Made by a program: the position numbers and the translations under genes
Notes under the pieces: generated by a model
Told to the model about the DNA's origin: nothing
The model's database searches: none
The model's input: only the letters and a program-made list of their open reading frames with translations
DNA from: Escherichia coli
GTDB taxonomy: Bacteria; Pseudomonadota; Gammaproteobacteria; Enterobacterales; Enterobacteriaceae
Length of the DNA: 58,632 nucleotides
Assembly: GCF_003334765.1 (NCBI RefSeq)
Contig: NZ_QOWT01000025.1
Reading direction: 5' to 3' (one strand)
Shown: positions 58,558 to 58,632 of the stretch, in pieces
Numbering within the stretch: position 1 is the stretch's first letter
How the letters are laid out: each line of letters opens with the position of its first letter

Positions 58558-58632
58558 TAGATTCAATCTGTCAATGCAACACCCCTTTCAATTATCTCTT
58601 TCGGTGTTTTGAACTTCAGTGTCTTTCTCGGT

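Follow-up and report, generated by a model that had tools for sequence, protein, structure and literature searches.

Where thiB stops in this Escherichia coli contig, and what takes its place, is the question raised by the last nucleotides of the window, i.e., the whole stretch of 58,632 nt that was analysed. The window starts in unique acnB sequence, and only its 3' end falls in a repeat. A preliminary description, made from the letters alone, had noticed that a thiB reading frame changes character abruptly 75 nt before the end, and had left the choice between an insertion, a rearrangement and an assembly chimera. The evidence assembled here makes it almost certain that the window ends 77 nt inside the mobile element IS30, which interrupts thiB between codons 232 and 233 and whose transposase is encoded on the opposite strand.

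The thiB gene and its break

ThiB is the periplasmic thiamine-binding protein, and the intact protein has 327 aa. In the window, the plus-strand fragment from 57858 to 58555 holds codons 1-232 of its gene and the first base of codon 233, of 327. This 5' fragment (698-700 nt up to the junction) is identical to the intact thiB allele of FDAARGOS_943, and the equivalent stretch of BS74R-D, a complete E. coli genome, carries the RefSeq label 'thiB, incomplete, missing C-terminus'. Colinear identity with annotated thiB goes together with a TPP riboswitch on the 5' side and, past the mobile element in the relatives described below, with thiP and thiQ on the 3' side; the gene itself is incomplete, with 233 of the 327 residues. 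The riboswitch, which belongs to the thiBPQ leader, is intact at 57728-57827 (+), where the Rfam family RF00059 is matched with 66.1 bits (gathering score, 54.3), and the matching position carries RefSeq annotation in BS74R-D, G3/10, CAVP776 and FMU073332.

Other RNA elements of the window were noted along with this leader. Two copies of naRNA4/REP lie between mutT and yacG, and the further known elements are STnc40 (secA-mutT junction), tp2 (pdhR-aceE), the leu leader and SgrS; the coordinates recorded for the whole set are 21711-21904 (-), 22308-22377 (-), 10323-10436 (+), 49616-49765 (+) and 55745-55971 (-), and all of these elements are ordinary and show nothing unusual. A match to RF02797 ('PssrA') at 28024-28113 (-), with 105 bits, bears the name of a plasmid-encoded Shigella sRNA. 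What it covers is the 3' end of chromosomal ftsA, the spacer and the opening bases of ftsZ, in sense to ftsZ, a location that does not seem to suit the family name.

Much of the preliminary description of the break is borne out. The frame that opens with the GTG at 57858 translates as ThiB and then as a Cys-rich string of 25 residues, and the continuation that had been given for the normal protein is indeed that of intact ThiB (AANFSEGHYLQVEVAARTAASKQ). The TAG at 58558-58560 and the minus-strand open frame that closes at a TGA (complement of 58563-58565) are both present, and the GC content falls, as had been stated, from 51.4% in the thiB part to 39.0% in the tail. The abrupt junction is likewise real, but its placement at 58557/58558, with a tail of 75 nt, has to be corrected. 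Intact thiB alleles, compared in thousands of genomes, do not run colinear with the window through 58632 and align only to 58555; the junction is at 58555/58556, the foreign DNA begins with the T at 58556 (TGTAGATTC...), and the tail comprises 77 nt (58556-58632). Because GCT, the hybrid codon at 58555-58557, is also read as Ala, the break had been set 2 nt too far to the right. Since intact thiB stops matching at 58555, and since the 77 nt that follow are those of an IS30 end at 100% identity, the junction is, on the strength of these alignments, a genuine break, with chance fluctuation ruled out. The fusion frame of thiB and IS30 reaches a stop after 261 aa, with 28 IS-encoded residues following residue 233.

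The element at the end of the window

The visible part of the element (58556-58632, minus strand) amounts to 77 of 1,221 bp, and all 77 positions agree with the right end of IS30A of K-12 MG1655, a mobile element of 1,221 bp in the RefSeq annotation, with insI1 as its transposase gene. IS30 copies with 100% identity to the full length of the tail are present in 3,428 of the 5,426 complete E. coli genomes, at up to 23 places per genome, and the RefSeq label at these matches is 'IS30-like element IS30 family transposase'. The first 26 bp, at 58556-58581 (-), form the canonical right terminal inverted repeat (IRR, TGTAGATTCAATCTGTCAATGCAACA), identical to the IRR of K-12 IS30A. The 3' end of the transposase gene spans 58563-58632 (-) and is open to the window edge; its stop TGA, the complement of 58563-58565, lies within the IRR, and its 22 complete codons (58566-58631) encode the same residues as the C-terminus of K-12 InsI1. 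In BS74R-D, whose 1,221-bp element has the tail as its first 77 nt, the transposase CDS ends at the base equivalent to this TGA. Judged by its sequence, the tail is the right-hand end of E. coli IS30. The preliminary description had recognised no known IS end in these letters and had considered the insert impossible to characterise from the window. Neither view holds, since the IRR is the canonical one and the 77 nt are fully diagnostic of IS30; the comparison with mobile-element sequences, which the same description had named as a check, returns 77/77 identity to annotated IS30 ends.

The complete element can be followed in other genomes. The exact thiB::IS30 junction, in the same orientation, is found in three complete genomes, namely BS74R-D, G3/10 and CAVP776; with FMU073332 as the fourth, IS30 sits at that site of thiB in 4 of the 5,426 complete E. 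coli genomes, and a simple insertion is seen in all four. In the first three, which share the junction, the orientation and the truncated thiB of the window, the element measures exactly 1,221 bp, has terminal repeats that agree at 23 of 26 positions, and is followed by the 3' part of thiB, thiP and thiQ, and the thiB gene truncated by IS30 carries a pseudogene annotation. For the genome of the window, a simple insertion would be expected to join the left end of IS30 (...CAACGCAACAGTTATG in reverse complement, terminating ATTGAATCTACA), with its left inverted repeat (IRL), to thiB sequence reading GCCGCGAACTTT or ACCGCGAACTTT, and in longer form GCCGCGAACTTTAGCG or ACCGCGAACTTTAGCG.

The copy in BS74R-D is identical to K-12 IS30A at 1,217 of 1,221 positions (4 differences, 99.7%). 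Its transposase of 383 aa scores 276 bits with the NCBIfam model NF033563, transpos_IS30 (cutoff 80), and contains the Pfam domains HTH_38 and rve. The relatives with the identical junction show the length typical of IS30, 1,221 bp, and a single long ORF whose 383-aa product is a transposase with an HTH at the N-terminus and a DDE/rve core at the C-terminus. The 26-bp imperfect inverted repeats beginning TGTAGATTCAAT are represented by the IRR in the window and the IRL in BS74R-D, which match each other at 23 of 26 positions in the latter genome, and near-identity to the type element holds as well, the window itself being testable over 77 nt only. Compared with IS30A/insI1 of K-12 MG1655 (E. 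coli IS30 is the type element of the IS30 family), nothing of substance is different, apart from the place of insertion, since K-12 has no IS30 in thiB and this location is rare.

BS74R-D agrees with the window at every one of the last 4,333 nt and shows 19 mismatches in another 49,936 nt upstream, and by these counts the window comes from a very close relative of BS74R-D. It is not the BS74R-D record itself, as shown by the 19 differing positions upstream, most of them in a patch of acnB. The patch deserves a remark of its own: 16 of the 19 mismatches cluster at 973-1512 (acnB), with spacings that are all multiples of 3, and the cluster resembles a short recombination patch of synonymous differences, while the other ~48 kb compared hold only 3 differences. 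The flanks of G3/10 and CAVP776 belong to an allele group different from that of the window.

The carrier genomes also allow us to weigh the two readings that compete with a simple insertion. The window ends inside the element, with the far side unseen, and IS30 is known to make deletions, inversions and cointegrates via IR-IR junctions (PMC9333248). With about five IS30 ends in BS74R-D-type genomes, the tail could then mark a rearrangement brought about by IS30 (deletion, inversion or IS30-bounded composite transposon), so that the rest of thiB would not lie beyond it. This is improbable in view of BS74R-D, which differs by 19 mismatches in about 54 kb and has a simple insertion, in which the 1,221-bp element borders directly on the remainder of thiB, followed by thiP and thiQ, as well as of the three other carrier genomes, in which the insertion is simple too. 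Less credible still, to the point of being practically dismissed, is a chimera in which the thiB contig was misjoined to an IS30 end from elsewhere in the genome. IS30 is multicopy, short-read assemblers are error-prone at repeats, and the window does end a k-mer-like 77 nt into one; yet three independently finished genomes contain the same junction base for base, together with the reciprocal junction and a perfect or imperfect target duplication, and a break that coincides with the tip of the inverted repeat and with a top-ranking IS30 target site is unlike a random misjoin. Among the options first offered, the mobile-element insertion therefore stands and the chimera falls, given the same junction and far side in three complete genomes. 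For the simple insertion of IS30, we infer that the rest of the element and the rest of thiB lie past the window edge in this genome as well.

The end of the window calls for a separate explanation. A length of 77 nt is a typical k-mer length, and an end that lies one k-mer inside a repeat is the usual mark of a contig broken in de Bruijn-graph assembly. Many draft contigs with IS30 ends likewise stop 99-127 nt inside IS30. Because one end of the window is unique acnB sequence and the other lies 77 nt inside a repeat with about five copies in BS74R-D, the nearest relative, and because similar draft contigs exist, it probably stops at a short-read contig break in a multicopy repeat. As a side observation, MAGs or drafts assigned to Planctomycetales, Woeseia, Chryseobacterium and Collinsella (loci L009, L024, L025 and L030-L033) also contain IS30 ends with exactly the sequence of the E. 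coli element. These foreign-taxon contigs often end 99-127 nt inside the IS, and they are likely to reflect contamination together with repeat-broken contigs.

The target site in thiB

The target dinucleotide is the GC at 58554-58555, the left copy of a 2-bp target-site duplication; such a duplication is a hallmark of IS30 integration (PMC9333248). Without the insertion, the site is TACGCC-GC-CGCGAAC; with it, in G3/10 and FMU073332, the sequence runs TACGCCGC, then IS30, then GCCGCGAAC, with the GC duplicated. The target-site duplication that the preliminary description had suggested looking for on the far side of the insert is accordingly found, as GC/GC, in these two carriers. In the other two, the left and right copies are GC/AC (BS74R-D) and GC/GT (CAVP776), the far copy lying outside the window in each comparison; the variant bases are at positions 5478-5479 in both loci (L001 for BS74R-D, L043 for CAVP776), exactly at the tip of the IS.

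Starting from the palindromic GC, a C-to-T transition on one or the other strand yields AC or GT, and apart from this dinucleotide, the flanks of G3/10 and CAVP776 differ at 5 of 7,112 positions. The variants may have arisen by later point mutation, by assembly consensus error, or by repair of donor-spacer mismatches from an IR-IR junction, as mismatched spacer bases from such a junction have been mentioned for IS30 (PMC9333248). If a donor spacer had been carried over, the flanks of K-12 IS30A (AC) would fit CAVP776 and not BS74R-D. The variable 2 bp beside the left inverted repeat (AC, GC or GT) may possibly be a record of donor spacer carry-over.

The four carriers point to more than one event at this site. 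In FMU073332, IS30 occupies this thiB dinucleotide the other way round, again with GC duplicated. Three allele groups can be told apart among the flanks of the four carriers, with differences that begin within 156-357 nt of the IS, and intact alleles of other strains have exactly the 5' thiB sequence that the window and BS74R-D share. Because of the opposite orientation, the three groups of flanks and the intact alleles of the same 5' sequence, at least two insertions, and probably three, have taken place at the thiB site.

IS30 prefers nearly palindromic hot spots, and a natural one, LHS, is known in lambda, where its left half is lambda 33244-33290 (PMC9333248). To see how the thiB site compares, we built a position weight matrix from the IS30 flanks in the reference-genome collection, with no thiB flank among the training flanks, and applied it to all 2-bp staggers possible in the window as reconstructed without the insertion. 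In this ranking, the thiB site came 10th of 60,525 positions, and over nine combinations of half-site length and redundancy filtering its rank varied from 1st to 27th of about 60,500, from a profile that is rough in that some training flanks share ancestry (a nested IS911::IS30 recurs in several genera). As a control, the same matrices always chose lambda 33290 as the best site within lambda 33200-33520, in agreement with the published centre of LHS within 1 bp. A 24-bp consensus for IS30 hot spots was reportedly published by Olasz et al. in 1998.

The 30-bp thiB target, AAGATAACTACGCCGCCGCGAACTTTAGCG, resembles LHS in its near-palindromic form, with a G/C-rich core round the 2-bp stagger and, about 10-13 nt outwards, a motif of the TAAA type, and the same empirical profile finds both. 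Unlike LHS, the thiB site is a putative hot spot, proposed from its recurrence in genomes and its profile score. Its profile rank and the fact that the dinucleotide has been struck in both orientations agree with the nearly palindromic, hot-spot type of target characteristic of IS30. On balance, we lean towards regarding the GC at thiB codon 232/233 as a natural chromosomal hot spot of IS30, struck independently at least twice, and probably three times, in both orientations and on different allele backgrounds. In the searchable open literature, we found no mention of an IS30 hot spot in thiB, and a search for IS30 and thiB together gave only spurious matches, e.g., 'Thibaud' in a reference list.

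Two observations made while surveying IS30 flanks are recorded here. A flank from Symbiopectobacterium (locus L019), gcgaagtacgccgc, looked thiB-like at first, and was set aside when the ORF listing assigned it to an IS3-type transposase. In K-12, IS30A lies inside IS911A (locus L045, 4528-5776), and its flanks ttaaaaaaggctAC and ACcgcgctcttgat recur verbatim beside IS30 in other genera (L011 and L020); the nested IS911::IS30 seems to travel as a unit.

Origin of the insertion and probable consequences for thiamine uptake

In the current model, IS30 transposes by copy-out-paste-in, through a circular or dimer intermediate with abutted inverted repeats that integrates with a 2-bp stagger at a hot-spot target (PMC9333248). 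Applied to this locus, such an intermediate would have attacked the thiB target, chosen as a nearly palindromic sequence of the hot-spot type that IS30 prefers, and the 2-bp stagger would have become the GC direct repeat. The anatomy at thiB::IS30 fits this model fully. Both the element and the mechanism are known, and the same insertion is already annotated by RefSeq in near-identical genomes; the one mildly new aspect is the apparent role of thiB codon 232/233 as a recurrent natural hot spot of IS30.

As for the products of the operon, ThiB would end at residue 233 of 327 and continue with 28 residues encoded by the IS, and thiP and thiQ would be set 1.2 kb of IS away from their riboswitch-controlled promoter, behind an antisense transposase gene. 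A simple scan for promoter and terminator consensus sequences, on both strands of the thiB::IS30 region of BS74R-D, returned no sites. From general principles, the expression of thiPQ is probably reduced through polarity. Because ThiB is truncated and thiPQ is parted from its promoter, the most likely outcome is the loss of the ThiB binding protein and, with it, of high-affinity thiamine uptake; de novo thiamine synthesis should be unaffected.

For the biology of the strain, the finding means that thiB is a pseudogene made by IS30, and that high-affinity import of thiamine and thiamine pyrophosphate is probably lost. For transposon specialists, thiB would offer a natural chromosomal example of IS30 hot-spot targeting.
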